Notes: generated by a model not told the origin, from the letters alone. DNA of 64,000 bases from an uncultured delta proteobacterium (GCA_963760795.1 CAVXEP010000013.1:224001-288000), one strand, 5' to 3'. Positions 15,478 through 34,944 are shown, numbered from the stretch's first letter. A program made the numbers and translations.

Positions 15478-15507
15478 GGAGCCCAATCCAAAATCGAAAA
15501 TCCAAAA

Positions 15508-16592
15508 TTACTTGATGACCTGATTCGCCCGCGAAAGAAATTCCGGCGAAAGCGTCAGGCCGATCTGCTTCGCCGCTTTCAAGTTGATGACGAACTCAAA
15601 CTTCGTTGCCTGCTGTACTGGCAGATCGGCAGGTTTCGCTCCCTTGAGGATCTTGTCCACGTAGTGAGCGGACTTGCGGAACAGGTCATCGTAGTCCGCC
15701 CCATAGGACATCAGACCGCCCTCATCGACAAACTCCTTCTGGAAGTAAATAGCTGGTAACCGGTATTTGCCGGCAAGCTCGACGATGCGCTTTCTTTCAG
15801 CCGAAAAAGGAGGGAGAGGTTAACGTCATAATCGCGTTGACCTGCTTTTGCTTTGCGGATTGGAAGGCGCTCTCTAAACCTTTGGGATTAGGTTGCGTCT
15901 TAATCACCTCCAATTCTAGCTTCAGCACCACAGCCGCAGCCCTGAGCTTTTTCAGTTGGAGATCTGTTGATATGGCGCCTATGCCGCCTTCCCGGCCCCC
16001 GCAGAAATCCAACTCGGGCGAGCTTGGGTATGGCGTCCTTGAGTATCTCTAGCCTTTTGGTATTTAGCTCGGTCGCTAAAGTCGAGAGCCCTGTAACATT
16101 GCCTCCCGGCCGTGCCAGACTGGCAACCAGGCCTTCACCCACAGGGTCCCCAACCCTCGTCATCACGATGGGGATAGTAGTGGTGGCGCTCTTGGCCGCT
16201 AACGTCGGTCCCGTCGCTGAGACCACGATCAAATCAACCTTAAGACGAACCAGCTCCGCTGCAAGCTCAAGTAGGCGCTCAGAACCTTTGTTTTCTCCAT
16301 ACCGGTATTCAATGCTGATATTCTTTCCCTCAATCCATCCCAGCTTCGTCAGCTCTTGTCCGAACGCCTCCACCAGGACCGCGCTACCGGAAGCAGTGCT
16401 ATGTATCGAGGAAACCGATGCGAAAGATTTTCTCCAGGCTGCTGCGCGTGAGCCACAGCCCAACACAGCGCGAATGCTAACAACGAGGGCAAGAAGCGCC
16501 ACCGATTTTGGTCTACAGGGCCGCTTTTGGATTGTGGATTTTGGATTGTCGGATCGAAGCCAGCTAATTGCAGTCCGAAACTTCTTTGTCAT
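15508..16592 (-). CDS. Orphan ABC_sub_bind (PF04392-like) substrate-binding protein, several frameshifts
   Basis: Pieces GWIEGKNISIEYR, LVASLARPGGNVTG, KRLEILK, MSYG...YVDKILKGAKPADLPVQQATKFEFVINLK...RANQVIK* in several frames. Confidence 0.85.
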
Positions 16593-16637
16593 GTCCTAGC
16601 CCCCCCAAATCCAAAATCCAAAATCGAAAATCCAAAA

Positions 16638-17632
16638 TTACTTGATGACCTTATTCGCCCGCGAGAGAAACTCCGGCGAGAGTGTCAGTCCGATCTGTTT
16701 CGCCGCTTTCAAGTTGATGACGAACTCAAACTTGGTCGCCTGCTGCACCGGCAAATCAGCCGGCTTGGCGCCTTTCAAAATCTTGTCCACGTAAACAGCC
16801 GCGCGCCGGTACAGGTCATCGTAGTCCGCCCCGTAGGACATGAGACCGCCCTCGTCGACAAACTCCTTCTGAAAGTAAATAGCCGGCAAGCGGTATTTGC
16901 CGGCAAGCTCGACGATCCGCTTTCTTTCGGCGAAAAAGAGGGCGACTGGTGGTCGTCATGATCGCGTCCACCTGCTTCTGCTTTGCGGTTTGAAAGGCGC
17001 TCTCTAAACCTTTGGCGTCGGATTGAGTCTCGATCTCCTCCAATTTTAGCTTCAGCGCCAGAGCCGCAGGCCTGAGCTCTTTCAGTTGGAGGTCTGATTG
17101 CCTATGCTCGCCTCCCGGCCGCCGCAGAAGTCCAACTCGGGCGAGCTTGGGGATCGCGTCCTTGAGTATCTCTAGCCTTTTGGTGTTTAGCTCGGTCGCT
17201 AAACTCGAGAACCCGGTGACATTGCCTCCCGGCCGCGCCAGACTGGCAACCAGACCTGCACCCACGGGGTCCCCAGCGTTCGCCATCACGATGGGGATAG
17301 TAGTGGTGGCTTTCTTCGCCGCCAACGCCGGTGGCGTCCCTGAGACCACGATCAGATCAACCTTAAGACGAACCAGGTCCGCCGCAAGCTCAGGCAGGCG
17401 CTCAGACTTTTGCTCTGCAAATCGGTACTCGATGGTGATATTCTTTCCCTCAATCCATCCAAGCTTGCGTCAGCTCTTGCCGGAACGCCTCCAAGAGGAC
17501 CGCGCTACCGGAAGCAGTGCTTCCATCCAGGAAACCGATGCGAAAGATTTTTCCAGCTTGCTGCGCGTTGGCAATGGGACCAGAAATCACAATGGCAGTT
17601 GCCAGTAGCCAGATGACAATGGATTTCATCAT
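16638..17632 (-). CDS. Orphan ABC_sub_bind protein, frameshifted
   Basis: MMKSIVIWLLA signal peptide, RIGFLD, LARPGGNVTG, ...RANKVIK*; very similar to 15508-16592. Confidence 0.87.
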
Positions 17633-17678
17633 GGATTTGTCTCCGATGTTCTTACCGACAACCGACCACTGACCACGA

Positions 17679-18662
17679 TCACTTGATTACTCTGTCTGCT
17701 CTGACCAGCACATTCGGCGGGATCGTCAGGCCGATCTGCTTGGCGGCTTTCAAATTGATGATGAACTCGAACTTGGTCGGCTGCTCTACTGGAAGGTCTG
17801 CAGGTGTTCTACCTTTCAAAATCTTGTCGACATACGTAGCGGCGCGCCGGTCCAGGTCCCTGTTGTCCACGCCGTAGGTCATGAGCCCGCCGGCCTCCAC
17901 GATTGCTGGTGAGATGTACATCACCGGGAGTCGGTGCATTACCGCGAGTGCAAAAATCTGTGTGCGGTGAGCATTGGCGATAGGGCCCGCCGCCATCATA
18001 AGGGCTGCCTCAGCCGATCCCTTGCTCGCAGCGCGGAATGCGGTCTCAATATTCTTGGGGTCTAGAACGTCTAGGTATTGAAGCTTCACTTTCAACGTCC
18101 CTGCCGCGAGTTCCACCTCTCTTAACACTTGTGCGTGGTCTGGTCTGGTCGAAGTTCCAAAGACCGCCACGCGGGAGAGCCTGGGAATGGTCTCCTTCAA
18201 CAGCTCCAGTCGTTTTCCGCTTAGCTCGGGGGCAAGTGTGGACAACCCGGTGATGTTCCCACCAGGCCGCGCAAGGCTGGCGATGAATCCTGTTGCGACT
18301 GGATCAGGATCGTTCGTCATGACTATGGGAATCGTTGTCGTCGCTTCCTTTGCGGCACGCGTTGGTAATGGACCAGCCGTGACGATGATGTCTACCTTGA
18401 GACGCACAAGCTCGGCCGCAAGCGCGGGGAGGCGATCGAGTTTCCCTTCCGCATATCGCAACTCAATGACAATGTTTTTCCCCTCGACGTAACCAAGGTC
18501 GCGCAGACCTTGGCGAAAGGCCTCGATGCGGGCCGATTCAGCGGAAGGGGAGGAACCACGTAGGTTTCCTATCCGCGGGAGTTTCGTTGGCTGCGCCTGG
18601 GTAGGGAAGCAGGGAGCAAAGAGCAGGGAGCAAAGAGCAAGGAGAATGATTTTCTTACTCAT
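17679..18662 (-). CDS. Orphan ABC_sub_bind protein
   Basis: Intact: FRQGLRDLGYVEGKNIVIE, SLARPGGNITG, PVEQPTKFEFIINLK, RADRVIK*. Start MSKK at 18662. Confidence 0.92.
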   Translation of the reverse strand: MSKKIILLALCSLLFAPCFPTQAQPTKLPRIGNLRGSSPSAESARIEAFRQGLRDLGYVEGKNIVIELRYAEGKLDRLPALAAELVRLKVDIIVTAGPLPTRAAKEATTTIPIVMTNDPDPVATGFIASLARPGGNITGLSTLAPELSGKRLELLKETIPRLSRVAVFGTSTRPDHAQVLREVELAAGTLKVKLQYLDVLDPKNIETAFRAASKGSAEAALMMAAGPIANAHRTQIFALAVMHRLPVMYISPAIVEAGGLMTYGVDNRDLDRRAATYVDKILKGRTPADLPVEQPTKFEFIINLKAAKQIGLTIPPNVLVRADRVIK

Positions 18663-18712
18663 TGCTTTCCGTCCTGCTTTTCTGATGTCTGACGTCTGAC
18701 TTCTGACCGCTG

Positions 18713-19712
18713 TCATTTGATTATCCTAGTCGCTCGCGCCAGCACCTCCGGTGGAATCGTCACGCCGATCTGCTTCGCCGTCTTGAGATTGATCACGAAC
18801 TCGAACTTCATCGGCTGCTCCACCGGCAGATCGGCAGGCTTGGCTCCCTTCAGGATTCTGTCCACGTAATATGCGACGCGCCGGTAGCTGTCCGCGAGGT
18901 CCGCCCCGTAGGACATGAGCCCACCGGCATCTACAGCTTCTCTGTTGCTGTACATCGACGGTAACCGGCTCTTTAACGCAAAGCCCGCGATCCGTTTTCG
19001 GTTAGCACTCATTAGCGGGCCCGCGGTGAGCACGTAGAGTCCATCCGGGCGCTGCTTGTTTAGCGCAGCGAATACCTTCTCGAAATCGTCCGCAGCTCGT
19101 ACCTCCCAAGGCTGAATAGTCAACTTCAGCGCACGCGCCGCGGCTGGGAGAACCTCTTTCACCTCGAGTACACTGGCCGGAGTCGGCCGGATCGTAGAGA
19201 ACCGCGACACGGGCAAGTTTGGGAACGGCTTCTTTGAGCAGCTCCAGCCGCTTCCCGCCTAGTTCTCTGGTAAGGAGTGTAAGGCCGGTGACGTTGCCGC
19301 CGGGACGGGCAAGGCTTTCAACCAGGCCTGCCTCGACAGGATCGGACCCACCGCCCACCATAACGATGGGAATCGTCTTGGTCGCATTCTTGGCCGCCCG
19401 GATCCACGGGTCCCCTCCTGCTACCACGATGATATCAACCTTGAGACGCACCAGCTCCGCCGCAAGCTCAGGGGCCCGATCGCGCTTCCCCTCCGCATAT
19501 CGGTACTCGATGGCGATGTTCTGTCCTTCTATGTAGCCACGCTCGCGCAGAGCCAGCCGAATTGCCTCGGCACGGGCGGACTCAGTAGCTGGATCGGAAT
19601 TCGATAGATACCCTATCCGCGGGACTTTCTTCGGCTGCTGTCCCTGAGCGATCGCTCCACCAGCAAGCAGCATGGCAACGACCAGGATTGATCTGAAAGA
19701 AACTATCCTCAT
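18713..19712 (-). CDS. Orphan ABC_sub_bind protein, one frameshift near 19180
   Basis: ORFs 19002-19796 and 18713-19216 join; RBS GAGG before ATG 19712; close paralog of 32188-33270. Confidence 0.88.
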
Positions 19713-20134
19713 TGCGCACCTCGTGCTGGAAGCTATCACGCATGCGGCACTTGCGAAAAGTGTTATTTGCGTCAGATACGGAACCAGGTCCGTCACTTTC
19801 TCCGTATGGAATCCGGCGCTTGGTCACACGGTGCCGGCATAGGCACCATCGGAAGAGGCGCGCCGAGGCCTCAGCGCTACTTATTTTCCTACAGCTCCCA
19901 CGTGGTAGGATTTCCGCATGTGCGGCCGATTTCGTGCGCCGCAAACCGAACATCGCCCTTGCTAACTATTCACCAGTCGAATCCTACTCCGCGAAACAGG
20001 TTAGATTTCATCGTTGACGCCACTAACTGCCTGAAGTACAAGTCAGCGGAGCCGCATGGAGTTGTTTCTGCGGTGTAAGCGAACCTGTCTTATGTGTAGT
20101 TTGTTCCCACGACAAATATCCCCGTTTTGAGGCG

Positions 20135-23100
20135 ATGCTTCTAATGGCACCCACGAGAAAAAAGGGTTCAAAGAGTACCAAGGCAAAACCGCTCCGTCCC
20201 GCGAGGCAAACGTTGGTGGCTAAACAAGCGCAGACGATCGCTGAGCTATGCCAGGAACTCGCTCAATCTGTGCAGCGGGAAAATGAGGCTCTGGAGCATC
20301 AGACGGCAACCGCCGAGGTGCTCAGCATCATCAGCCGCTCGCCCACGGACGTGCAGCCGGTGCTCGACGCCATCGTCGAGAGCGCGGCTAAGGTTTGTGG
20401 AATCGATGACGTGGTTCTGCGACTGCGCGAGCGCGACACGATGGCGGTGCGGGCTCATTTCGGCCCCATACCGACTGGGCGCACCTGAGATCAGCGTCGA
20501 TGACGCCACAGTTTCGCTGGATTCGCGAGCATGGCACACTCCACGTTCCCGACGCCAGAGCACCGAACGATTTTCCAGTAGGTGACTTCCGGCCTCTTTC
20601 GTTCGCTCGTTGGCTGTTCCCCTTCGTCAGCAGGGAGAATTTATTGGAGTCACTGAACGCACGTCGTACCGAGGTGCGCCCCTTCACCCCGGCGCAGATC
20701 AAGCTGCTCGAAACTTTCGCCGACCAGGCGGTGATCGCCATCGAGAACGTGCGGCTGTTTCAAGAACTCACTGAAGCGTTGGAACAGCAGACAGCGACGA
20801 GTGAAATCTTGGGCGTCATCGCTAGCTCGCCGACGGATATTCAGCCGGTATTGGATACGGTGGTTGAAAATGCTGTGCGGCTGGCCGGCGCTGAGAAAGG
20901 TCACATTTATCAATATGATGGAGAATTTCTTCGCGTCGTTGCGCAGTTTCAACGAGACCGTTGAAGAAATCGCAGTTATGCGTGACCAACCCATCCGCCC
21001 GTAACCTGGGAGTTTGAACAGTCGAGCGTTCCTCGAGGGACAACATTTCCAACGTCTTGACGCACAAGCGGACGCCAATTATGACGGCCCTGGCCGGCCG
21101 GCCGGTGCACGCTCCGCCCTGGCGGTTCCCCTGCTTCGCGAAGGAACAGCGATCGGAACCATTACAATCTGGCGTGATGTTGTGGAAGCATTTTCTGAGA
21201 GGCAAATTGAGCTGGTCAAAACCTTTGCCGCCCAAGCGGTGATCGCCATCGAGAATGTGCGCTTGTTCAAGGAACTCGGCGAGCGCAACGCGGAACTGCG
21301 CGAGGCGCTGGAGCATCAGACGGCGACGGCCGAGGTGCTCGGCATCATCAGCCGCTCGCCCACCGACGTGCAGCCGGTGCTCGACGCCATCGTCGAGAGC
21401 GCCGCGCGGGTTTGTGGGATCGATGACGTGGTGCTGCGACTCCGCGAGGGGAACAGTCTGGTTCCACGGGCTCATTTTGGTCCCATACCCATCGCCCGCG
21501 TCGAGATCAGTATTGATGAGCCACGATTTTCGCTGGATGCGCGAGCATGGCACGCTCCACATTCCCGACGTCCGCGAGCAGAACGACTTTCCAACGTTGG
21601 GTTCCACCGGCGGCTGGCGCACCTTCTTAGCCGTTCCCCTTCGTCAGCAGGGGGAACTCATTGGAGCACTGAACGCACGTCGCACCGAGGTACGCCCCTT
21701 CACCCCGGCGCAGATCAAACTGCTCGAAACCTTCGCCGACCAGGCGGTGATCGCCATCGAGAACGTGCGGCTGTTTCAAGAACTCAAGGAATCGTTGGAA
21801 CAGCAAACCGCGACGAGCGAGATCTTGGGCGTGATCGCCAGCTCGCCGACGGATATTCAGCCGGTGCTGGACGCCGTTGCCGAAAACGCTGCGCGGCTAT
21901 GCGAGGCAACCGATGCGCAGATCACGCGTGTCGACGGCGATGTCCTCCGTATCGTGGCTTCACATGGCTCGATCGCCGTGCCATCAAGTGCACGAGCGGA
22001 AGGTATCCCGATTCGCCGTGACATCGTTGCGGTCGAGCGGTCCTCGACCGTCGAACTGTTCACGTTGAAGACTCTGGCAGCCGAAATAGATGGCGAGTTC
22101 GCTGGAGCTAAGTATCTTCAGCAGATCACGGGCCAGCGTGCGACGCTTTCGACACCCTTGCTCCGCGAGGGTGTTGCCATAGGCGCGATCGTGATTCGAC
22201 GCATGGAGGTCCGGCCTTTCTCGGAAAAACAGATCAAGCTGCTCGAAACCTTCGCTGCACAAGCGGTGATCGCCATCGAGAACGTGCGCTTGTTCAAGGA
22301 ACTGCGGAGCGCAATGCGGAATTGCGCGAGGCGCTGGAGCATCAGACGGCGACGGCCGAGGTGCTCGGCATCATCAGCCGCTCGCCGACGGACGTGCAGC
22401 CGGTGCTCGACGCCATCGTCGAGAGCGCGGCGCGGGTTTGCGGGATCGATGACGTGGTGCTGCGACTCCGCGAGGGCGACGCTATGGTTGCACGGGCTCA
22501 TTTTGGCCCCATACCGATCGCGCGCATCGAGATCAGTATTGATGAGCCAGCAGTTTCGCTGGATGCGCGAGCATGGCACGCTCCACATTCCCGACGTCCG
22601 CGCCCAGAACGATTTCCCAACGTTAGGTTCCGTCGGCGCTGGCGCACCTTCTTGGCCGCTCCCCTTCGTCAGCAGGGGGAACTCATTGGAGGACTGATCG
22701 CACGTCGCACCGAGGTGCGCCCCTTCACCCCGGCGCAGATCAAACTGCTCGAAACCTTCGCCGACCAGGCGGTGATCGCCATCGAGAACGTGCGGCTGTT
22801 CAAGAACTCACGGAGGCGCTTGGAGCAGCAGACGGCGACGAGTGAGATCTTGGGCGTCATCGCCAGCTCGCCGACGGATATTCAGCCGGTGCTGGACGCG
22901 GTTGCCGAGAGCGCCGCCGCGTCTGTGCGACGCAAACGATGCGCAATTTGGCGTCGTTGACGGAGACATGTGCTTCGGCTGGCGCCTCACATGGATCGAT
23001 GCCTCTCGTCGCGGCCGAGAAGGTCGCCGATTGACTCGCGCTATCGGTGCGCGGTCCGAGCGATGCTCGACCGGCAGACGATTCACATTCCAGACATCTG

Positions 23101-26100
23101 CAGCCCGGACGCGCAAGACGAGATTTCCGGACAGCTCAGGTTCATTGCCAGGCGATCGGCTGTCCGAACCGTGCTTGGCGACGCCGCTGCTTCGCGAAGG
23201 TACGGCGATCGGGGTGATTCATGATCCGCCGAACGGAAGTCCGGCCGTTCACCGACAAGCAGATCGCGCTGCTCAAGACCTTCGCCGACCAAGCGGTGAT
23301 CGCCATCGAGAACGTGCGGCTGTTCAAGGAACTGCAGGAGCGCAACGCGGAATTGCGCGAGGCGCTGGAGCATCAGACGGCGACGGCCGAGGTGCTCGGC
23401 ATCATCAGCCGCTCGCCGACCGACGTGCAGCCGGTGCTCGACGCCATCGTCGAGAGCGCCGCCAGGGTTTGTGGGATCGAATACCTGACACTGCGACTCC
23501 GCGAGGGGAACGTGCTGATTCCGCGGGCTCATTTTGGTTCCATGCCCACCGCCCGCGCCGAGATCAGTGTTGATGAACCACGGTGTCGCTGGATGCGCGA
23601 GCACGGGACGCTTCACGTTCCCGATATCGCGCGCGCAGAACGATTTCACAAGGGCGGGTTACCGACAGCAACTCGAATCGCACCTTTTTGGCCGTTCCCC
23701 TTCGTCAGCAAGGGGAACTCATTGGAACACTGACTGCGCGTCGCACCGAGGTGCGCCCCTTCACCCCGGCGCAGATCAAGCTGCTCGAAACCTTCGCCGA
23801 CCAGGCCGTGATCGCCATCGAGAACGTGCGGCTGTTCAAGTTGCAAGAACTCAACCGGAGCTCAGCTTGGAGCAGCAGACGGCGACGAGTGAAATCCTGG
23901 GTGTGATCGCCAGTTCGCCGACGGACATTCAACCGGTGCTGGATACGCATCGCCGAAAGCGCGTGCGCGTGTGTGCGGCGCGACCGATGCGTCACGATTC
24001 GCCTGCTCGATGGCGAGATGTTCTTCGGGTCGTCGCCCACTATGGCGAGACTGCCGAAGCAAGTACGCCTGGCTGCAGAGCCGACCGGGACGTGTTGGAT
24101 TGCCGACTTCAGGCAATCGCGCATTCAGCGAGCGACAAGCCATCCACGATTGCCGATGCTGCAGGCAGAGCGAGATTCCCGAGCAGTCATTGCCGCACGG
24201 CATGGAGTCGAGACCATGCTTGTCAACGCCGCTGCTGCGCGAGGGCACGGCCATCGGGGTGATCAACATTCGTCGCGACGGAAGTGAAGCCTTTCACCGA
24301 CAAGCAGATCGCGCTTGCTGGAAACCTTCGCCGCCCAAGCGGTGATCGCCATCGAGAACGTGCGGCTGTTCAAGGAACTCGGCGAGCGCAACGCGGAATT
24401 GCGCGAGGCGCTGGAGCATCAGACGGCGACGGCCGAGGTGCTCGGCATCATCAGCCGCTCGCCGACGGACGTGCAGCCGGTGCTCGACGCCATCGTCGAG
24501 AGCGCCGCGCGGGTTTGCGGGATCGATGACGTGGTGCTGCGGCTCCGCGAGGGGAACGCTATGGTTTCGCGGGCTCATTTTGGTCCCATACCCATCAGCC
24601 GCGTCGAGATCAGTATTGATGAGCCACAGTATCGCTGGATGCGCGAGCATGGCACGCTCCACATTCCCGACGTCCGCGCGCAGAACGATTTCCCAACGTT
24701 GGGTTCCGTCAGCCAGTTGTCGCACCTTCTTGGCCGTTCCCCTTCGTCAGCAGGGGGAACTCATTGGAACACTGAACGCACGTCGCACCGAGGTGCGTCC
24801 CTTCACCCCGGCGCAGATCAAACTGCTCGAAACCTTCGCCGACCAGGCGGTCATCGCCATCGAGAACGTGCGGCTGTTTCAAGAACTGCAAGAACGCAAT
24901 CGCGAATCACCGAGCTCTGGAGCAGCAGACGGCGACGAGTGAAATTCTGGGCGTCATCGCCAGCTCGCCGACCGACATTCAGCCGGTGTTGGATGTTGTT
25001 GCGGAGAACGCAGCGCGGCTATGTGACGCGACCGATGCCAACATTTACCGTATTGACGGCGACTGGTTATCGGCTCGTGGCCTCATACGGAGCTATGCCT
25101 ATCCCCGACCGCGATAAACCGAGACCTCTCATTCGGGGTCATGCTCCAGCCAGAGCTATGATCGATCGAGCGGTCGTACACGTCGATGACATGTTGAGCC
25201 TGGAGGCTCAGGCCGAATTTCCTGAAGGCTGGGCTTTCACCCAGGCCGTCGGTCTACGTACTATGCTTAGTCGCACCGTTGCTGCGCGAGGGGGTCGCAA
25301 TCGGTGCGATCTTGATTCGCCGCACGGAAGTTCGCCCATTCATCGGACAAGCAGATTGCGCTTCTCAAAACCTTCGCCGACCAAGCGGTGATCGCCATCG
25401 AGAACGTGCGGCTGTTCCAAGAGCTCAAGGAATCACTGGAGCAGCAGACGGCGACGAGTGAGATTTTGGGTGTCATCGCTAGCTCGCCGACGGACATCCA
25501 ACCCGTGTTGGATGCAGTTGCGGCGAGCGCGGCGAGGCTGTGCGATGCCACGGATGCCACAGTCATTCGGCTCGACGGCGATGTTATGCATCAGGTGGCG
25601 GTCCATGGGTCGATGCCTGTCCCTGGGTCTCGACGAATAACCCACGGCACGCCCGTGGGCCGAGCTCTTATCGATCGAAGCACCATTCATATTCATGACC
25701 TCGTGGCGGAACTCGAAGCCGAATATCCGGAATCGAGGGATCGGCAGGGGCCGATCGGTACGCGCACGATGCTCATCACGCCGATGCTGCGCGAGGGAGC
25801 GCCGATCGGGGCTATCGTCATTCGCCGCATGGAGGTCCGCCCCTTCACGGAGAAGCAGATCAAACTGCTCGAAACTTTTGCCGCTCAGGCCGTCATCGCC
25901 ATCGAGAACGTGCGGTTGTTTCAAGAACTGCAAGAGCGAACCCAAGAGCTGATTAGGTCAGTGGGAGAGCTGAAAGCACTCGGCGAAGTCGGTCAGGCGG
26001 TTAGCTCGACTTTGGATTTCGAAACCGTGCTGACGCGCATCGTTTCCCATGCGGTCCAATTGAGCGGCACCGACGGCGGGGCGATTTACGAATACGACGA

Positions 26101-27203
26101 GCCGTCTGAAGAGTTCCTGCTGCGCGCCACCGATCATATGGAGGAAGAACTGATAACCGCTTTGCGGGCGAATCCCCCGCGTCTTGGCGACGGGTTAGTG
26201 GGGCGCGCGGCATTGGAGCCGGGAGCCGATTCAGATTCCCGATATTTCGCAATCTAGCGCCTACGCGCCGCGCATGCGCCAGATACTCGAACGCTTCGGT
26301 TTTCGTGCCAGCCTGGCCGTTCCCTTGTTACGTGAAGATCGCATCATCGGCGGCTTGGTAGTGCGACGAAAATCGATCGGCGAGTTTCGCCCCGAAGTCA
26401 TCGAGCTTTTGAAAACCTTCGCGACCCAGTCGGTGTTGGCGATCCAAAACGCCCGGCTGTTTCGCGAGATCGAGGAAAAGAGCCAGCAGATCGAAGCCGC
26501 CAACCGCCACAAGTCTGAGTTTCTCGCCAACATGTCGCATGAGCTGCGCACGCCGCTCAACGCCATCATCGGCTTCTCCGAAGTCCTGCAGGAAAGACTG
26601 TTTGGCGAGTTAAATGAAAAACAAGCCGAATACACTGACGACATCCTTACTTCCGGTCGCCATCTGCTGTCCCTCATCAATGAGATTCTCGATCTGTCCA
26701 AAGTCGAAGCCGGGCGCATGGAGCTGGAGACTGCTACGTTCGATCTGCCGTTGGCCATAGACAACGCCCGCACCTTCGTGCGCGAGCGGGCGACAAATCA
26801 TGGGATTACTCTAAATGTCAAAGTTGACGAGCGGCTCGGCGACATCGTCGGCGACGAACGCAAGATCAAGCAGATACTTCTGAATCTCTTATCCAACGCC
26901 GTCAAGTTCACGCCCGAGGGCGGACGGATAACAATTAACGCCAGACCGATTAACGGCGCAGTCGAGATTTCAGTAACCGACACCGGCATCGGCATCGCCG
27001 AAGAGGACCAGCCAAAAGTCTTCGAAGAGTTTCGTCAGGTGGGCAGCGACAACGCGAAAAAGGTCGAAGGCACCGGACTGGGCTTAACGTTGGCGAAGAA
27101 GTTTGTCGAGCTGCACGGTGGAAGGATTTGGGTCGAGAGCGAAGTGGGCAAAGGTTCCACTTTCGTGTTTACCCTGCCGACTGCCATGGCCGCACAGAGT
27201 TAG
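20135..27203 (+). CDS. Cytoplasmic multi-GAF (12 GAF) sensor histidine kinase, many frameshifts
   Basis: Repeated QTAT.E.L..I..SPTD.QPVLD ... [14 protein letters not shown] modules; His[15 protein letters not shown]; HATPase [22 protein letters not shown]. About 2350 codons if restored; no TM segments. Confidence 0.88.
20285..25940 (+). repeat. Tandem ~1.02-1.05 kb (A+B) GAF repeat units
   Basis: A modules start ~20285, 21302, 22328, 23359, 24404; B modules ~20779, 21795, 22820, 23867, 24917, 25436. Confidence 0.9.
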
Positions 27204-27455: not shown

Positions 27456-27504
27456 GCCGACCGGCAATTGTCGCCGCCTACGGCGGCTCACTTAATAGTT
27501 AGGC
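27456..27504 (+). other. Partial attC-like site (L'', L' and R' core GTTAGGC)
   Basis: GCCGACCG...CGGCGGCTCACTTAATAGTTAGGC. GCCG-A-CCG pairs with CGGCGGC leaving one bulged base; the core is 34 bp before the ATG. Confidence 0.55.
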
Positions 27505-27538
27505 TTACTATCGCAAGTGACTACGGAGGATTGAACCA

Positions 27539-28330
27539 ATGCCGCGCGTCGCTGCTCTGTATCGTTATCCTGTGAAGGGCTTCACTCCCGAAGAGTGTGA
27601 CACGTTGACGGTTCTCGACGAAGGGAGAATTGCCGGCGACCGTGTCCTCGGCATACGGTTTGCTGACACCGAAGCGGCCGATGATGCCTGGAGTAAGAAA
27701 ACGGGGATGGTGGCCCTTGTGAATACACCAGGGCTGGCACGTCTGCACATTAGGTTTGAGGAAGAGGCACTTCGGTTACGCATCAGCTTAGCCAGCACCG
27801 TCTTAGTGGATGAGGTACTCAATAATGATGGAAGAAAGCGGCTCGCGGCCGCGGTGGCGGATTATGTGCTCAAGCTCGACGAGAATCCGCTTTCTAGCCA
27901 CCCGGAGCGGCTCCCGCTACGGGTGGTTGGCGACGGCATCACGCCGCGATACCACGACGCCGAAGCAGGTCAGGTGACGCTACACGGCCGTGGGAGTCTC
28001 CAAGTGCTTACGGCTGCGATTGCGAACGCCGAAGTCAGCGAGCTTCGCTTTCGCTCAAACATTGCGGTTGAGAGGCTGGGAGCCTGGGAGGAGCAAAGCT
28101 GGGTGGGACGAAAGGTTCGCATAGGCACGGTCGACTTTGACGTGATAAAGCCCAAGCTCAGGTGCCTTGCTACGCATGCAAATCCTAAGACAGGTGAACG
28201 GGACTTGCCGATTTTGACGACCCTGACCAGGGTTTTTGGGCAGGAGCAGCCAACGTTTGCAGTGGCAATGGTTCCTAGTCACGGCGGCGGACAAATTCAC
28301 GCCGGCGATGAAGTCAGCCTCGTTGATTAA
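27539..28330 (+). CDS. MOSC domain-containing protein (MOSC_N plus MOSC)
   Basis: VAALYRYPVKG, GIAGDR-like RIAGDR, RFRSNI, EEQSWVG, RCLATHANP, GQIHAGD; RBS GGAGG. Confidence 0.92.
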   Translation: MPRVAALYRYPVKGFTPEECDTLTVLDEGRIAGDRVLGIRFADTEAADDAWSKKTGMVALVNTPGLARLHIRFEEEALRLRISLASTVLVDEVLNNDGRKRLAAAVADYVLKLDENPLSSHPERLPLRVVGDGITPRYHDAEAGQVTLHGRGSLQVLTAAIANAEVSELRFRSNIAVERLGAWEEQSWVGRKVRIGTVDFDVIKPKLRCLATHANPKTGERDLPILTTLTRVFGQEQPTFAVAMVPSHGGGQIHAGDEVSLVD

Positions 28331-28394
28331 AGACAGGTTAAGGCCAGATGGGTGGGACTAAAGGATTGTGCCAGGTTTCTATCAGTCCATTTTT

Positions 28395-28409
28395 GCCTAA
28401 CCATTCGCT
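28395..28409 (+). other. Truncated attC left end (R'' GCCTAAC-CATTCGCT)
   Basis: GCCTAAC is the exact reverse complement of GTTAGGC at 27498 and lies 65 bp after the MOSC stop. Confidence 0.5.
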
Positions 28410-28609
28410 TTAGACCGCTAACGACGCTGAATGTAAACCGCTTCGACTTGGAGAACCGCGAGATAGCCGAGTTCATCGGTCTGGAACTCGCTAGGCTGAT
28501 TGTTGACACTTGCTATCCTGAACTTCTGCGCGAGCGGGAGGAAACGGAGAGAGTTATTGAACGGCAAACCTTGAAATCGCCTTATCGACGTTAATCATTC
28601 CGGATAAGG

Positions 28610-29602
28610 GTGACCCCCGTGCACAAAAAAATCACCATATTGGTTCTCTGCGCTCTGCTCCTTGCTCCCTGTTTCCCCGCCCAAGCACAGCAGCCAACGA
28701 AAATCCCGCGGATAGGATTTCTAGCTGCTAACTCCCTTTCCTCCCTCTCGGCCCGCATTGAGGCATTCCGGCAAGGTCTGCGCGCACTTGGGTATGTGGA
28801 GGGGAAAAACATTGTCATTGAGTATCGATATGCAGAGGGAAATGCCGAGCGTCTCCCCGCGCTGGCGACCGAATTAGTGCAGCTAAATGTCGACATCATC
28901 GTCACGGCTGGCTCGGCATCGACCCGTCCCGCCAAGGAAGTAACTCGAATTATTCCCATTGTCATGGCGGCGGATAGCGATCCTGTTGGGACCGGTTTCG
29001 TCGTCAGTCTTGCGAGACCTGGGGGAAATATTACTGGATTGTCCAACCTCGCCCCGGAGATCAGCGGGAAACGACTGGAGCTTCTAAAAGAAACCGTTTC
29101 TAAACTCTCCCGCGTAGGCGTCTTCGGACAGTCGAGCACACCCGGTACCGCGCCAGCGTTGAGAGAGACGGAACTCGCTGCGGCGGCACTCAAGGTGCAA
29201 CTTCAATTCCTAGAGGTACGAGATCCCAAAGATATTGAGAATGCATTCCGAAGCGCAAGCAAGTGGCGCGCGGGGGGAGTCATCCTCTTGTCGAACCCGG
29301 TCTTCACTTCTCAGGGAAAACTACTTGCAGACCTCGCGGTAAAGAGCCGGCTGCCGGCTATATCTCAAATTAGTGAATTTGTGGATGACGGAGGGCTGAT
29401 GAGCTATGGCGTGAGCGTTGTCGACTTATACCGGCGTGCCGCCACTTATGTGGACAAGATTTTGAAAGGCCGAAAGCCCGTAGACCTTCCCGTGGAGCAG
29501 CCGATCAAGTTCGAGTTCATCATCAGCCTGAAGGCAGCGAAGCAGATCGGCCTGACGATTCCTCCCAATGTGTTGGTGCGGGCGGATCGGGTTATCAAAT
29601 GA
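28610..29602 (+). CDS. Orphan ABC_sub_bind protein
   Basis: Intact; RIGFL, GYVEGKNIVIEYR, LARPGGNITG, RADRVIK*. Confidence 0.92.
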   Translation: MTPVHKKITILVLCALLLAPCFPAQAQQPTKIPRIGFLAANSLSSLSARIEAFRQGLRALGYVEGKNIVIEYRYAEGNAERLPALATELVQLNVDIIVTAGSASTRPAKEVTRIIPIVMAADSDPVGTGFVVSLARPGGNITGLSNLAPEISGKRLELLKETVSKLSRVGVFGQSSTPGTAPALRETELAAAALKVQLQFLEVRDPKDIENAFRSASKWRAGGVILLSNPVFTSQGKLLADLAVKSRLPAISQISEFVDDGGLMSYGVSVVDLYRRAATYVDKILKGRKPVDLPVEQPIKFEFIISLKAAKQIGLTIPPNVLVRADRVIK

Positions 29603-29748: not shown

Positions 29749-30342
29749 ATGAGAAACAACATGGTGCGTCTCACGCTTGTCGCTCTGCTCTTCGCGCTTA
29801 GCTTTTCCGCCGACGCCCAGCAGCCGGCGGGAACTCCCCGGATAGGAACCCTGGCCGCGGCCTCCGCGACCCCGGATCTAGGTGGCAAACGGTTGGAACT
29901 GCTCAAGGAAGTCTTCCCTAATCTTGACCGGGTGGCTTTCCTCTGGGAACCGGGTACTCCGAGAGGAAACGAGCCCCTCACAGATATGGAGGCTGCGGCC
30001 AAGGCGTTACGACTCACACTTATATCGATCGAGGTGCGAAGTGTTGGCGATTTTGAGGACGCATTTGCGCGAGTGAGAAAGGAACGCGCCCAGGCGCTCA
30101 TTATGAACCCAGGTCCACTTTTCAATACTCAGCAACGCCAAATCTTGGACTTCGCGGCAAAGAACCGGTTGCTGGCGATGTACCCAACCAGTGAATTTGT
30201 TGAGGCCGGCGGCTTGATGAGCTACGCGCCGATCGAGCAGCCGATAAAGTTTGAGTTCATCGTCAATCTGAAAGCGGCGAAGCAGATCGGCCTGACGGTT
30301 CCCTCGAATGTGCTGGCGCGGGCGGATAGGGTGATCAAATAA
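29749..30342 (+). CDS. Miniature ABC_sub_bind protein with two in-frame internal deletions
   Basis: RIGTLAAASA joined directly to TPDLGGKRLELLKE; GGLMSYA joined directly to PIEQPIKFE; signal peptide and RADRVIK* retained. Confidence 0.8.
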   Translation: MRNNMVRLTLVALLFALSFSADAQQPAGTPRIGTLAAASATPDLGGKRLELLKEVFPNLDRVAFLWEPGTPRGNEPLTDMEAAAKALRLTLISIEVRSVGDFEDAFARVRKERAQALIMNPGPLFNTQQRQILDFAAKNRLLAMYPTSEFVEAGGLMSYAPIEQPIKFEFIVNLKAAKQIGLTVPSNVLARADRVIK

Positions 30343-30555
30343 GCACGCGGCGATGCTAGGAGTGAACTGAATTTTCCATCTAACAAATCCTGTGAAAATT
30401 GCCTGTGGCGTCTTACAATTCAATCCTGCGGCATTCCGCGCGTTGCGACTCTTCAATTTAGTCCAACACGCTCGTTTTAGCGCTTTCCCGCAACTTGATT
30501 GTTTCCAAGCTTTGGGGATAAAACGCTTCACGATAGGCTGCTTTTGAGGCCGAGC

Positions 30556-32172
30556 ATGTTCCTCATATTGAAGAAGTTTAGTCTGAGGGTAATTATCCCG
30601 AGCGTTTCCCTGATCATACTTGTGAACCTGCTTCTTTCAGAGTCCCATGAAAGTAATCCGCATAAACGCATCGAAGAGGCGTTGGCCTCGGGGAATTATG
30701 ACCTCGCAAAGGCGGAATACCGAAAGCTGATTCAGGACAACTTCTTCAAGGTCGAGTATCACAGAGGCTATATTCGTAGCCATCTCAGGCTATCTGAGCG
30801 GACAACCCGCCCGTCCAGGCGAGACAATCAGGACATAATAGAGGGGTATCGGCGCTACGCTTCGGCGAGTGCTCCCGAAGTGTCTGATATCGGCTACTAC
30901 GGACTCGGCTTTTTCTACGGTCTTCAGACCGACGACGAGCGGGCACGTGAGAATTTTCTGCACGTTCGGAATACACGACTCCCCTACCTGAACTATTCTC
31001 TTGGAGCCATCTATAGCAGGACGGGTCGTCGCGATCTCGCGAAGCAACACTTCGATCGAGAGATCCAACTTGGAGGCATTGTCACCGGAGCGTATTCGAA
31101 CCTCGCTGTGCTGCTTTTCGCAACAAAGCAGTACAGTGAGCTCAAGCAAATTGCTGCGCGTCCTGAAGCAAAAAACTCTATCCCATTGGATATCCGACGC
31201 TTACTTGCGCTACGAGAGGGGAGGTATGCGGACTACGTACGGGAAGTTTTGGGTTTCCACGGCGTAACCACCTACGGTCTTCTCGGCGCTGTGCTGATAC
31301 TTGGCGCGTGGTTTGTCTATCTCCAGCAGATCGAGGTGTTCGAGCCGAAACGCCTTTGGTTCGGCGGGATAATCCTGGCCGGAGGGATGATTTTTTCTTG
31401 CTTTGCGCTCCCGCTCTACGATTTTGCCTTCGGATTCCGCCCCAATCTCACAAACCTGAGCGATCTCCTTTTTTATATGTTTTTAGGCGTGGGACCGATT
31501 GAGGAAGTACTAAAAATTCTTCCTATGCTCCTGCTCATGTGGTTGACCCCTGCGCTCGAAAAGCCAGTGAACTACATTATCTACGGCTCTATATCGGCGC
31601 TAGGATTCGCCTTCATGGAAAACCTGCGCCCTTCCTATGAATGGAGACTCGGAGCAGTCTCCACGCGCGCCTCTGGCGCTGTCATCCTGCACATGACACA
31701 GACATCATTAGTTATGTACGGCCTCTTCTACAGCAGGTACCGCGTCAAGAAAAAGCCGTTTCAGTACTTTCTCCTCGCTCTTTTAGCAGCATGCGTCCTT
31801 CATGGGACTATTGATTTCTTATTGTTCAAGGGCTGGGGCGTTCTCTGTCTTCCAATACTGATTTATGTCATCCGCCAGTACGGTATCTTTATCAATTGCA
31901 CCCTGAACCTGTCCGACGGTAATCCGGACCAGCCAAAGCGACAGCTCGATCTCACCGAGTATCTCTGCTATTCGCTGGCGGCCATCGTTATCCTCCAGTA
32001 TGTCGCAATGGCTGTGAAGTACGGCCCCAGCAATGCCAACTCGGCTTTCCTCGGGACAGCATTTCTCTCGTTTTTTTTGCTATGCGTGATTTTGGTAAAC
32101 CTCGGGAGCTTCGACATACAAAAACGGCAATGGTTGCCACTGCTGAGGAGGAAAGCAACCTCAGAAATATGA
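30556..32172 (+). CDS. PrsW-family glutamic intramembrane metalloprotease with N-terminal TPR-like region
   Basis: VGPIEEVLK, GFAFMEN, ILHMTQT, VLHGTIDF motifs; TPR-like YYGLGFFY and YSLGAIY helices. Confidence 0.85.
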   Translation: MFLILKKFSLRVIIPSVSLIILVNLLLSESHESNPHKRIEEALASGNYDLAKAEYRKLIQDNFFKVEYHRGYIRSHLRLSERTTRPSRRDNQDIIEGYRRYASASAPEVSDIGYYGLGFFYGLQTDDERARENFLHVRNTRLPYLNYSLGAIYSRTGRRDLAKQHFDREIQLGGIVTGAYSNLAVLLFATKQYSELKQIAARPEAKNSIPLDIRRLLALREGRYADYVREVLGFHGVTTYGLLGAVLILGAWFVYLQQIEVFEPKRLWFGGIILAGGMIFSCFALPLYDFAFGFRPNLTNLSDLLFYMFLGVGPIEEVLKILPMLLLMWLTPALEKPVNYIIYGSISALGFAFMENLRPSYEWRLGAVSTRASGAVILHMTQTSLVMYGLFYSRYRVKKKPFQYFLLALLAACVLHGTIDFLLFKGWGVLCLPILIYVIRQYGIFINCTLNLSDGNPDQPKRQLDLTEYLCYSLAAIVILQYVAMAVKYGPSNANSAFLGTAFLSFFLLCVILVNLGSFDIQKRQWLPLLRRKATSEI

Positions 32173-32187: not shown

Positions 32188-33270
32188 TCATTTGATTATC
32201 CTAGTCGCCCGCGCCAGAACCTCCGGCGCAATCGTCAAACCGATCTGTTTCGCCGTCTTGAGATTGATCACAAACTCGAACTTCATCGGCTGCTCCACCG
32301 GCAGGTCGGCGGGCTTGGCTCCCTTCAAAATCCTGTCGATGTAATATGCGACTCGCCGGTAGCTGTCCGCGAAGTCCGCTCCGTAGTACATCAGCCCACC
32401 CGCATCTACAAATTCGATGCTCTGGTACACCGACGGCAACCGGCTCTTTAACGCAAGGCCGACGATCCGTTTTGTGTTAGCACGCAAGACTGAGCCCGCG
32501 CTGGACACATAGAGTCCATCAGGGCGCTGTTTGCCCAACGCAGCGAATACCCTGTCGAAATCGTCCACAGTGCGTACCTCCCACGGCTGAAGAGTCAACT
32601 TCAGCGCACGCGCCGCCACTGGGAGAACTTCTTTCACCTCGCGTACGCTAGCCGGAGTTGACACACTGCCCGGATCGTAGAGAAACGCGACACGAGCAAG
32701 TTTGGGAACCGCTTCTTTGAGCAGCTCCAACCGCTTCCCGCCAAGTTCTTGGCTAAGGTTTGTAATGCCGGTGACGTTGCCGCCGGGACGGGCAAGGCTT
32801 TCAACGAAGCCTGCCTCGACAGGATCGACCCCTCCGCCCACCATAACGATGGGAATTGTCTTGGTGGCATTCATGGCCGCCAGGATCGGCCCACCCCCTC
32901 TTGCTACCACGATGATTTCGACCTTGAGATGCACCAGCTCGGCCGCAAGCTCGGGGATCCGATCGCGCTTCCCCTCCGCAAATCGGTATTCGGTGGCGAT
33001 GTTCTGTCCCTCGATGTAGCCGCGCTCGCGCAGGGCCAGCCGAATTGCCTCGGCACGGGCGGAGTCACTAACTGCATCGCCCGGCGATAGATACCCTATC
33101 CGCGGGACTTTCTTCGGCTGCTGAGACTCAACCCCGCCTTCCAATCCTACGAACGCGATAACGAGGGCGAGCAACCCTAGCCATTTTGGATCGCGGATTT
33201 TAATCCGCGGGGCCGCTTTTGGATTACCGGAAAAAGAATCGGAAACTCGCTTCGAAGCAATTATTTTCAT
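32188..33270 (-). CDS. Orphan ABC_sub_bind protein
   Basis: Intact; RIGYL, ESLARPGGNVTG, RATRIIK*. ATG at 33270; the ORF extension upstream is intron sequence. Confidence 0.92.
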   Translation of the reverse strand: MKIIASKRVSDSFSGNPKAAPRIKIRDPKWLGLLALVIAFVGLEGGVESQQPKKVPRIGYLSPGDAVSDSARAEAIRLALRERGYIEGQNIATEYRFAEGKRDRIPELAAELVHLKVEIIVVARGGGPILAAMNATKTIPIVMVGGGVDPVEAGFVESLARPGGNVTGITNLSQELGGKRLELLKEAVPKLARVAFLYDPGSVSTPASVREVKEVLPVAARALKLTLQPWEVRTVDDFDRVFAALGKQRPDGLYVSSAGSVLRANTKRIVGLALKSRLPSVYQSIEFVDAGGLMYYGADFADSYRRVAYYIDRILKGAKPADLPVEQPMKFEFVINLKTAKQIGLTIAPEVLARATRIIK

Positions 33271-33310: not shown

Positions 33311-33984
33311 ATCGCGGTAGGGACGGTCATTGCTGACCGCCCCCCGCACAGACCCGTACGTGCGGCGCTACCGCATACGGTTCTTACCTCGGATGTTGAC
33401 GTGCAAAGCTACACGTACACCCAGCAATCCGCGCGACCTGGCTACGAACGGTTTCCCGTCCGAGTTCCGGCTCTGTGTCCGGTCCAGTAGCGATTGCTCG
33501 GTGTTCTCCTTGGTCAGTCCCCTTCCCTCCGCCAACTCCGCAGGCAGCGCCACGCCGCCCTTGTTCGCTGGTTTCTTCGGTACTATGGAACTGTATGACT
33601 CCCCGTTAACGTGCATGTCGGGATTGTGGCCTCGCGCCTTCTCCGACCGTTCCGCTTCTGTTGTAGAAACGGAAGTCACCGGGGTCTCTCGGCTTCCGTG
33701 AGAAAAGTTTCCAACCGTGCCAGTGGTCTTTGACTCCGTGGGGGTCCCATCGAACTTGCCAATATCGCTCGACATGACTGTTGCCTTCCCCATATCAAGA
33801 TAAGGTCGGCCTCCACAAAAGGGTGTTTTCGGAGCTCAATACACCGCCCGGTTGTACCTCTGTGAACGCTTCGCCCTGCCGGTTGCCCGACACTGCGCAT
33901 CACTCGAGGCCAAGGCGACTGGCTAGGTCTTACCTCGTACGACTCTTTCATTCGCTACCTTCCTCCGGCTTTTGCCGACGCTTC
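33311..33984 (-). mobile_element. ORF-less group II intron (IEP internally deleted; resembles bacterial class E)
   Basis: Minus strand ends with domain V GAACCGTATGCGGTAGCGCCGCACGTACGGGTCTGTGCGGGGGGC and domain VI ...CCCTACCGCGAT. Starts GAAGCGTCGGCAAAAGCCGG. EBS1 CTTGAT (33794-33799) pairs with exon ATCAAG. Removing it restores GTCATCAAG-TAATTTTGG as at 16638. Confidence 0.88.
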
Positions 33985-34023
33985 CTTGATGACCTTATTC
34001 GCTCGCGTGAGCACCATCGGCGG
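33985..34023 (-). pseudogene. 3' remnant of an ABC_sub_bind gene (5' exon of the intron)
   Basis: PPMVLTRANKVIK, followed after the intron by TAA. Confidence 0.85.
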
Positions 34024-34098
34024 ATTTGCTCAGCCAAACGAATGCGCTTGACCTATGTCCCCCTTGCTCTTAGAATTCCCTCGTAGGAGGTTTTTCCA

Positions 34099-34317
34099 AT
34101 GAGAGCGATAAAAATCCATGTGCCAGATACCCTGCTGCGCAAGCTGCCTAAGAGCCAAGCCGAGAGAAAAGAAGTTGTAAGATTGGGACTGCAGCGCTTC
34201 ACTTCGCGTCGGCGCAAGAAAGCGCGTAGCGTTGTAGACGATACTTTTGCCGCGCTGGCCGTCCGAAACCATGCCAAAATAGAGCAGCTGATTGAGCAAA
34301 CAAAATATGGCGATTAG
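34099..34317 (+). CDS. Putative antitoxin of a PIN toxin
   Basis: 72 aa, RBS AGGAGG, ribbon-helix-like N-terminus; overlaps the PIN gene start. Confidence 0.7.
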   Translation: MRAIKIHVPDTLLRKLPKSQAERKEVVRLGLQRFTSRRRKKARSVVDDTFAALAVRNHAKIEQLIEQTKYGD

Positions 34318-34804
34318 ATCCCTGGAGGATGTCCCGGATGAATCAAATATTTTTGTTGATACCAATATTCTCATCTATCACCTGCTTGACGATGAGTTGT
34401 ATGGGGTCTCCTGCCGAGATTTTCTCAAGCGAGTGGAGACTGGCTCGGTCATAGCGTTAACTTCGCCCATTGTCGCTTCCGAAACTCTGTTCATTTATCT
34501 TCGCGCTTGGCTTATCAAAAACAAGAAGATCGCTCCCAAACGTGTCCTTCGTTATCTCAAGCGCCATCGAGCGGCGGTCAAGGAAGTGGACTTTCATAAG
34601 CCACTGGCTCTGCTCGCCCTCATGCGGATCCTTCCCCTTAGTAAGGACGTCATGCAGACCTCCTATGACTTGATGACGCGCTACCAATTGCTCCCTGCCG
34701 ATTCCATCGACGCCGCTCTTATTCGCCGCCACCATCTAGCGGCTCTGGCCACTCGCGACGACGACTTTGATCTTGTTGAGAGTCTCGATGTGTACAAGCC
34801 TTGA
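34307..34804 (+). CDS. vapC: PIN-domain VapC toxin
   Basis: IFVDTNILIY, S..VASE, LLPADSI, LATRDDDF. Confidence 0.9.
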   Translation: MAIRSLEDVPDESNIFVDTNILIYHLLDDELYGVSCRDFLKRVETGSVIALTSPIVASETLFIYLRAWLIKNKKIAPKRVLRYLKRHRAAVKEVDFHKPLALLALMRILPLSKDVMQTSYDLMTRYQLLPADSIDAALIRRHHLAALATRDDDFDLVESLDVYKP

Positions 34805-34817
34805 ATCGCGTTTTGTT

Positions 34818-34884
34818 GGCCGCTTTTGGATTTTCGATTGTCGGATCGAAGCCCGCTAATTGCAATCCGAAACTTCTTTGTCAT
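34818..34884 (-). pseudogene. 5' remnant of an ABC_sub_bind gene
   Basis: MTKKFRIAISGLRSDNRKSK plus its upstream leader is nearly identical to the start of the gene at 16592 (MTKKFRTAISWLRSDNPKS). Confidence 0.8.
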
Positions 34885-34944
34885 GTTCTAGCCCCCCCCA
34901 AAATCCACAATCGACAATTATTTATTTATGCCCCAGTCTATCAC

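Follow-up and report, generated by a model that had tools for sequence, protein, structure and literature searches.

An inserted array of orphan PF04392 solute-binding protein genes in a catabolic gene cluster of a soil deltaproteobacterium

We analysed a stretch of 64,000 nucleotides from an uncultured delta proteobacterium (CAVXEP010000013.1:224001-288000, in our numbering G000:C13:224001-288000), referred to below as the window, and found that a 19.4 kb block within it (~15481-34923) is a real insertion. The block splits a syntenic Rieske/solute-binding protein (SBP)/oxidoreductase cluster, as annotated with Pfam; it is lineage-specific and known only from this soil bacterium. Eight loci of the SBP family PF04392 (ABC_sub_bind) lie in it, together with a multi-GAF histidine kinase, a toxin-antitoxin pair and a group II intron (Table 1). 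A first-pass annotation, made from the sequence alone, had described an integrase-free cargo island framed by PF04392 genes and had proposed a cassette-like system. Its observations proved largely right and were partly confirmed; the cassette interpretation is not supported, apart from the ideas of a diversified repertoire and of an intron aimed at a conserved terminus. We favour, with moderate confidence, a reading of the block as a plasticity-zone array of a birth-and-death, gene-converting family of orphan SBPs with selfish DNA, and not as an integron-like system. A variable stretch of the chromosome would have received a lineage-specific insertion consisting mainly of two multi-copy families of the genus, the orphan PF04392 SBPs and the multi-GAF kinases; the PIN toxin-antitoxin pair and the group II intron would have been added later as selfish elements.

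The block as an insertion

The source metagenome-assembled genome (MAG) is 6.58 Mb in 35 contigs (88.9% complete, 6.15% contamination). DNA searches were carried out with the regions on either side of the block (11230-15480 and 34920-41100). In all six congeners with both flanks on one contig (G013, G021, G007, G011, G017 and G002), the two flanking genes (14168-15316 and 34945-35796) were only 140-400 bp apart. The flanks are syntenic and the site is empty in each of the six, so the claim that the block interrupts a catabolic cluster held, as did the predicted joining of ~15480 to ~34920 in relatives. These relatives are all other species, with 72-88% identity in the flanks. In G011 the match reaches 15480 on the left and resumes at 34924, which defines the block as ~15481-34923.

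Several species have gathered small repeats at this intergenic spot. The empty site of G021 (L011, G021:C50, ~615-700 of the oriented locus) contains a palindromic repeat with perfect arms, similar to miniature inverted-repeat transposable elements (GTCATCCCGAG...CTCGGGATGAC), and those of G011 and G017 contain other small hairpin repeats. The element just outside the block that resembles repetitive extragenic palindromic (REP) sequences recurs at 90-93% identity in many species of the genus, and G011 has it at the orthologous spot.

The block as a unit was not found in other genomes, where only its MOSC gene was matched (in G019:C23). Its pieces are individually multi-copy or present in other contexts; G013:C8 holds the kinase, PF04392 and an MNT/HepT toxin-antitoxin pair in a different order. 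The G+C content of the block is mosaic (0.51-0.63). Neither a recombinase domain (Pfam) nor a tRNA was found in it, consistent with its description as integrase-free. A horizontally acquired island that has lost its integrase and ends, and into which PF04392 duplications moved later, would fit the absence from all six congeners, the mosaic composition, the toxin-antitoxin pair, the intron relic, the broken genes and a MOSC gene that is 90% identical to another species' copy in a different context. We consider such a history unlikely, as there is no integrase remnant, no tRNA and no flanking direct repeat besides the heptamers described below, most of the content comes from families native to the genus, and no homologous block was found elsewhere. 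Insertion may instead have proceeded by homology-driven recombination at dispersed repeats.

We also compared the block with Logan contigs of four public runs. The PF04392 and GAF repeats attracted thousands of short contigs, and a few near-identical ones matched PrsW, MOSC and the toxin-antitoxin pair. Contigs of two runs matched the PrsW gene and the toxin-antitoxin pair with 2-9 differences and did not span the junctions. Such near-identical contigs for unique parts of the block indicate that its sequence exists in nature. Among the joints listed for the four runs, none spanned a junction and none linked 15480 with 34924, a comparison of contigs that does not bear on circular forms, depth or absence. 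No public run contained a fraction above 0.32 of the words sampled from 14200-16200. It is extremely unlikely that the block is an assembly artefact, in which the contig detours through repeats and the block is not truly at this site. Both junctions abut repeats, the source is a MAG and the frameshifts are concentrated in repeated genes; however, the junction repeats are just ~25 nt long, the two flanks run on correctly within a single 309 kb contig, and the public matches to PrsW and the toxin-antitoxin pair speak for the sequence itself.

A second candidate case of presence and absence was considered around 45154-46170, where G013 and G007 carry another SBP paralog and G021 carries two PF04392 copies. 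No clean empty site was found there in comparing these three genomes.

A recombining family of orphan binding proteins

The first-pass annotation had counted seven more-or-less complete PF04392 copies and a split one. We found instead three intact copies (B, F and H), three full-length copies with broken frames (A, C and D), one with internal deletions (G) and one remnant (E). Copies B, F and H scored 171, 171 and 138 bits against the Pfam cut-off of 25.9, matching the full-length profile, while scores against the TrpX equivalog of NCBIfam (NF041285) were 112-148 bits, below its cut-off of 390. Copies A-D form four tandem minus-strand genes in the left part of the block. Copy E, upstream of H, has kept its heptamer leader (34912-34824) and its last codons, which end at 33985, and its body is replaced by the plus-strand antitoxin/PIN pair. 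Upstream of copy A, a 142-nt stretch (19789-19930) without an Rfam match is 94% identical on contig C31 (92641-92782) and also occurs upstream of a paralog on C19.

Mutation or an error of the consensus accounts for the frame breaks in the source genome. At 17469, the extra base was mostly missing from contigs at least 90% alike in four of four public runs (10, 9, 8 and 7 contigs), and some public contigs of the same similarity lacked the extra base at 19183/19184, so that in-frame versions are common elsewhere. In loci of other MAGs, intact, full-length broken and partial copies numbered 140, 14 and 23 in short-read assemblies and 34, 11 and 11 in long-read assemblies, with 32 copies cut by locus edges excluded. 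The presence of broken copies in both kinds of assembly shows that decay in the family is real, though long-read assemblies may inflate its share.

The source genome contains 98 PF04392 matches grouped in 45 clusters, and 29 of the matches have intact length and no stop. Of the 24 clusters with several hits, 23 have all of them on a single strand. Permeases of PF02653 gave ten matches in the assembly, each separated from PF04392 matches by at least 6.7 kb, and none in the window. The reported lack of an adjoining permease therefore extends to the whole assembly: the PF04392 proteins are orphans, and their paralogs far exceed the membrane components. Among the genomes sampled, the expansion is present in 28 of 28 of taxonomic family f1 and in 0 of 27 of its sister family f3. 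In 79 loci of other MAGs, many of them from soil, we found same-strand tandem PF04392 arrays of up to nine copies. A full-text literature search (supplements aside) returned no description of PF04392 expansions. One weak PF04392 match in the source genome (G000:C12:199713-200357) lies in a 1196-aa open frame, which hints that a large signalling protein there also uses the domain as its sensor.

A comparable excess is known for the TctC/Bug family, with 79 members in Bordetella pertussis and 100 in Comamonas testosteroni, a redundancy whose reason is stated as unknown in the account consulted (PMC9602780). Both cases involve dozens of SBP paralogs that far outnumber the membrane components. The proteins described here differ in belonging to another Pfam family (PF04392, not PF03401), in their tandem arrays with many broken copies, in their heptamer-repeat leaders, in their low synonymous divergence across species and in the intron aimed at their stop codon. 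The wider question of why some bacteria keep dozens to about a hundred transporter-less SBPs may be tractable in this family, in which variation is focused on the pocket, copies recombine and divergence across species is lower than in neighbouring genes.

The copies share a domain over its whole length with VC_1101 (3LKV, Phe), SP1069 (3LFT, Trp), CD0873 (6HNI, Tyr) and TrpX (E 1.6e-28 to 2.3e-19), as well as a common C-terminal 'LARA..' region. These characterised proteins are part of complete ABC importers; the copies here, in contrast, have no adjoining permease, and their selectivity positions are hypervariable. Side-chain selectivity in VC_1101 is set by two residues, Ala-246 and Tyr-262, which have counterparts in SP1069 and CD0873 (PMC6816091). 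With offsets set by hand, the aligned residues in copy H are S304 and F320. Both positions are within the 39 most variable of 306 codons in an alignment of the subfamily to which copies A and H belong (A-type; 30 copies from 13 genomes, taken from the best matches, with G004 left out). The ligands named for PF04392 proteins in one source are Trp, Tyr and Phe (PMC10443332). The proteins probably work as a set of binders that have a few membrane partners in common and between them recognise many small solutes, aromatic or amino-acid-like. The earlier suggestion of a diversified repertoire fits in this sense, as binders, since the variability falls in pocket codons, including both selectivity positions. 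If the pockets do bind different soil compounds, the arrays would be a natural binder library beside aromatic-compound oxygenases.

PF04392 copies recombine. In the A-type alignment, a statistic of the pairwise homoplasy index (PHI) type was 0.675, compared with 0.731 +/- 0.008 for permuted data (0 of 500 permutations as low), and 54.5% of informative site pairs were incompatible. The tree is star-like, with copies of different genomes interleaved. Nine paralogs of copy A in the source genome have near-identical framework DNA, while differences, indels and frame breaks fall in ~7 short patches; genome-wide, break points in PF04392 cluster at profile positions ~142-148 and 192-203. Nucleotide diversity (pi) at codon positions 1/2/3 was 0.057/0.038/0.166 in the framework and 0.41/0.41/0.21 in the 66 codons that vary most at their first and second positions. 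This class was picked by its own variability, and the selection signal is modest. The barely higher third-position value in the variable codons argues for selection and not for local hypermutation. A non-circular check gave a modest result in the same comparison, sites with pi of at least 0.5 numbering 26, 27 and 19 at codon positions 1, 2 and 3. The family would thus evolve by tandem duplication, frequent recombination or gene conversion, pocket-diversifying change and frequent decay.

We considered whether diversification is programmed, with broken and partial copies acting as donor cassettes that rewrite pocket loops, as in the vls/pilS systems or the chicken pseudo-V genes. Recombination and a patch-and-framework pattern are indeed present: the framework is conserved, the patches are short and hypervariable, the breaks cluster in two profile regions, the recombination signal is strong, and broken copies occur in short-read assemblies too. 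There are, however, 29 intact-length copies in place of one expression site, and the copies that were read have their own 5' leaders. Third-position diversity in the variable codons (0.21) is near that of the framework (0.166), so selection and ordinary conversion suffice, and the breaks themselves may be consensus errors. No reverse transcriptase (RVT_1) was matched in the source assembly. We judge programmed diversification to be very unlikely. A diversity-generating retroelement is ruled out in the assembled part of the genome by the lack of RVT_1, by patches that are not restricted to A and by the indels they include.

Gene ends, heptamer repeats and the group II intron

Both ends of the block carry heptamer repeats, as first noted: the left end is a PF04392 stop codon (15508) followed by heptamers (15485-15508), and the minus-strand start has a heptamer-armed leader with the ATG of a PF04392 5' end at 34884. 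TTTTGGA is the commonest period-7 unit in the source genome, with 42 arrays. Of these, 24 are at most 300 bp from a PF04392 match, as against 1.3% of random places, and 18 are not near PF04392; for the six next-commonest heptamer units, 0 of 112 arrays lay within 300 bp of PF04392. A frequent module consists of (TTTTGGA)n, a ~60-nt loop with CTAGGACATGACAAAG, and (AATCCAA)n, and its second arm is in frame with the protein N-terminus in copies D and H. Homologs of the copy E leader module are present in seven other species. In other MAGs, 68 of 223 PF04392 3' ends are trailed by heptamer arrays of many different units. Heptamer arrays are thus a trait of the PF04392 family, and the same repeats stand at both ends of the block because it ends in PF04392 intergenic modules. 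They do not make the block unique, since further PF04392 copies with heptamers occur outside it, at 45154-46170 and 48500-49399. The 'frame' of the block would be no more than the two ends of an ordinary PF04392 array, a leader on the 5' side and a stop codon with heptamers on the 3' side. A hairpin sequestering the start site was considered and dropped, as the 220-nt 5' regions of 55 PF04392 genes fold like shuffled sequences (mean z -0.10; 3.6% below -2); four modules of the window gave z values of -2.1, -0.01, -0.7 and -0.1.

The first-pass annotation had pointed to a stereotyped end of the PF04392 proteins as a possible recombination or landing site. At the protein level the observation stands: the ending RA[DNT][RKQ][VI]IK was found in eight of eight loci of the block. 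In an alignment, the ends of 3LKV and 3LFT resemble the shared C-terminal region of the copies, and the conservation of the ending is protein-level and family-wide. At the DNA level it does not stand. The last ~15 codons rank with the most variable stretches of the A-type alignment, and at least four alternative endings occur, and homology between paralogs covers the mature coding body, stopping at the signal peptide and at the 3' end; one body was found joined to three different 5' leaders. Variable DNA at the terminus and homology across the body are the opposite of a conserved recombination core. The heptamers and the RAxxVIK ending would accordingly be features of the family and not dedicated recombination sites.

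We then compared the block with integron arrays, which it resembles in being a run of short gene units that includes a toxin-antitoxin pair and a group II intron. Some group II introns target attC sites. The block differs from such arrays in that no intI and no attC were found, the genes lie on both strands and not co-oriented behind one promoter, and the units are paralogs of one family. The gene reported as flanked by attC sites did not bear this out: a simple scan of 15000-35200 for core sites of the form RYYYAAC...GTTRRRY, which did not use a dedicated attC model, returned a single candidate, and this lies within the coding region of the kinase. The source genome has 13 matches to PF00589 and the window has none; the nearest is 14 kb from any PF04392 match, and no tyrosine recombinase or rve match was found within 14 kb of PF04392 genome-wide.

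On the cassette hypothesis, PF04392 genes would be mobile, with the stop/heptamer junction and leader acting as recombination or landing sites for a recombinase supplied from elsewhere, and cargo would gather as in an integron. The block does start and end at directly oriented TAA-plus-heptamer arrays, a toxin-antitoxin pair replaces a gene body between leader and last codons, the leader module is conserved in seven further species, A-type copies are more similar across species than neighbouring orthologs, and the proteins are orphans. We nevertheless regard the hypothesis as very improbable. There are no attC-like sites in the core scan, and no recombinase lies in the block or less than 14 kb from a PF04392 match; the DNA of the 3' terminus varies, and homology spans the bodies, not the ends; heptamers were not found after the stops of copies F and G; and genes lie on both strands. 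The same genes also form the plain same-strand tandem arrays of many soil MAGs mentioned above, and there is no sign of dedicated cassette machinery. The idea survives the tests proposed with it (the same genes in the same order at orthologous loci, random breakpoints, cognate permeases in matching numbers), but it rests on a single insertion event.

Several observations weigh against our reading of the block as an ordinary, decaying array. Both junctions fall exactly at a TAA-plus-heptamer array in direct orientation, which it leaves unexplained, and TTTTGGA heptamers were present in none of the five empty sites read (G011, G013, G021, G007 and G017). Exchange unit by unit would leave such junctions as well as the replaced body of copy E; plain homologous recombination explains them only loosely. 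Third-position diversity is 0.40-0.42 for neighbouring orthologs in seven genomes and 0.166 for A-type copies across 13, and such low synonymous diversity without clustering by genome needs interspecies exchange or a DNA-level constraint. The junctions, the body of copy E replaced between its ends and the low interspecies synonymous divergence thus remain odd. The frameshifts may in part be consensus errors of a long-read MAG (the one at 16939 lies in a T run). Homologs of the block's kinase in two other long-read MAGs (G044 and G019) are likewise split into several open reading frames (ORFs), a pattern that points to consensus errors where long-read MAGs contain tandem repeats. The selection signal drawn from the 66 self-selected codons is, as stated, a modest one.

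These oddities could be accommodated if PF04392 genes with their heptamer leaders were self-contained units exchanged between loci and species without a linked recombinase and joined at the stop/heptamer junction; intact and broken copies together would then form a shared recombining library that keeps producing new ligand pockets. We think this quite unlikely.

The group II intron of the block was matched by Rfam in two parts, domains D1-D4 (RF02005, 160.4 bits) and D5-D6 (RF00029, 40.6 bits). It is inserted exactly between the last codon of copy E and TAA, in agreement with the earlier proposal of an intron aimed at the conserved terminus. Intron matches were found in 7 of 31 genomes of the genus, and six copies with both ends were compared; partial copies at contig ends in G004 and weak matches (71-78%) in G011 were dropped. 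Three of the six are full-length (1.94-1.95 kb; G013, G045 and G019) and the other three (673-677 nt) have an identical deletion in the ORF. The window copy retains just the first codons of the ORF and does not encode a reverse transcriptase; as no RVT_1 was matched in the source genome, it is probably stranded.

Three of the six introns lie at the last-codon/stop junction of PF04392-type ends (...VIK/TAA, ...VLR/TAA and ...VIR/TGA). Their exon flanks are otherwise dissimilar, suggesting separate insertions. The remaining three are at a hairpin apex or in other repeats. The loop of exon-binding site 1 (EBS1) forms base pairs with the final 5-6 nt of the 5' exon (CUUGAU with AUCAAG in the source genome). 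As judged by eye, the fit holds in five of six copies, in two of them only with a bulged U, and there is one clear compensatory change relative to the source genome (G013, UUUGAU with AUCAGA). In their D1-D6 structure, EBS1 pairing and copies at hairpin apices, these introns resemble bacterial group II introns that home to short intron-binding site (IBS) motifs or hairpins; they differ in that three of six occupy a PF04392 last-codon/stop junction and in that the window copy lacks an ORF. Homing to the stop junction is a small, clean case of an intron adapted to the conserved end of a protein family.

Other genes of the block and its surroundings

Beyond the PF04392 copies, the cargo listed in the first-pass annotation was recovered: the PIN/antitoxin pair, the TPR-PrsW gene and the kinase with 12 GAF modules (Table 1). 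Genes are on the minus strand at 15.5-19.7 kb and 32.2-34.9 kb and on the plus strand at 20.1-32.2 kb. The antitoxin ORF overlaps the PIN gene by 26 nt, as in the type II VapBC layout; its VapB match is weak (E 0.027) and below the cut-off, and the pair had no DNA match elsewhere in the genus. An 80-aa ORF lies between MOSC and copy F. PADLOC gave no match for PrsW, PIN, the antitoxin, MOSC or the small ORFs, and Rfam at permissive thresholds found nothing in the block besides the intron.

The 12-GAF kinase family is multi-copy, with further members in the source genome on contigs C7 and C29 and many across the genus (74-84% identity). Repeated genes of this kind in long-read MAGs call for read-level checks before they are named pseudogenes. 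The MOSC gene with short flanks (27498-28417) is 90% identical in G019:C23, where its context is unrelated, compared with 72-88% for the orthologous flanks of the block.

Table 1. Features of the block and its flanking genes, in positions of the window
Feature	Position	Strand	Evidence or remark
SBP_bac_8 solute-binding gene, left flank, catabolic cluster	14168..15316	-	Pfam; ortholog adjoins right flank in 6 congeners
REP-like element, two hairpins, just outside block	15395..15484	.	~20 full or partial copies in the source genome
Left boundary, (TTTTGGA)3 array right after TAA of copy D	15485..15508	-	Tandem Repeats Finder (TRF) and sequence
PF04392 copy D, full length, several indels relative to copy C (pseudogene or consensus error)	15508..16592	-	Pfam pieces
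Heptamer-armed leader module, (TTTTGGA)4, loop with ATG, (AATCCAA)3	16525..16638	-	Arms pair in minimum free energy (MFE) fold, z -2.1
PF04392 copy C, frameshifted; extra base at 17469, also 16939	16639..17631	-	
PF04392 copy B, intact	17679..18716	-	Pfam 171 bits, profile 15-292
PF04392 copy A, frameshift ~19184, A-type subfamily	18714..19712	-	
Histidine kinase, 12 tandem GAF modules (510-540 nt period), HisKA, HATPase; 8 ORFs, four frame states	20135..27203	+	Pfam
MOSC-domain gene	27539..28330	+	Pfam
PF04392 copy F, intact	28610..29602	+	Pfam 171 bits
PF04392 copy G, 197-aa ORF, in-frame internal deletions	29749..30342	+	Pfam, profile 119-230 only
TPR and PrsW-family intramembrane protease	30499..32172	+	Pfam; NCBIfam below cut-off
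PF04392 copy H, intact, A-type, heptamer leader; listed ORF to 33330, inside intron	32188..33270	-	
Group II intron, ORF-less, ~674 nt; D1-D4 33946-33724, D5-D6 33385-33311	33311..33984	-	Rfam
PF04392 copy E, 3' remnant (...TRANKVIK), 5' exon of intron	33985..34060	-	Sequence
Toxin-antitoxin pair: 72-aa antitoxin 34099-34317, PIN toxin 34292-34804	34099..34804	+	Pfam PIN 58 bits
Right boundary, copy E leader: TAA and heptamer arm, loop with ATG at 34884, second arm	34824..34923	-	
NAD_binding_2 dehydrogenase gene, right flank	34945..35796	-	Pfam 141 bits; orthologs adjoin left flank in 6 congeners

Close protein relatives belong to MAGs from soil and groundwater that carry the labels Deltaproteobacteria, Candidatus Binatia or Syntrophobacteraceae. 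The window as a whole abounds in paralogous modules: over 1-64000 we counted at least 12 SBP_bac_1/8 genes, seven Rieske/LigXa-type oxygenases and two TctC genes, along with GFO/IDH/MocA oxidoreductases, cupins and a UbiD decarboxylase. Of transporter components it has just a single BPD_transp_1 permease (9213-10949) and an ATPase fragment with TOBE only (7988-8725). Orphan SBPs in the window thus extend beyond PF04392.

Outside the block, an MNT/HepT toxin-antitoxin pair (46492-47125) sits within the 3' end of an SBP gene (47173-48312; window 46210-47255) and is flanked by a ~85-nt near-identical direct duplication of the end of that gene (46210-46300 and 47170-47255). The pair is missing at the orthologous site in G013, G021 and G007 and has an 83% match elsewhere in G013 (C8). 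Its MNT protein matches the PADLOC candidate family PDC-S09.

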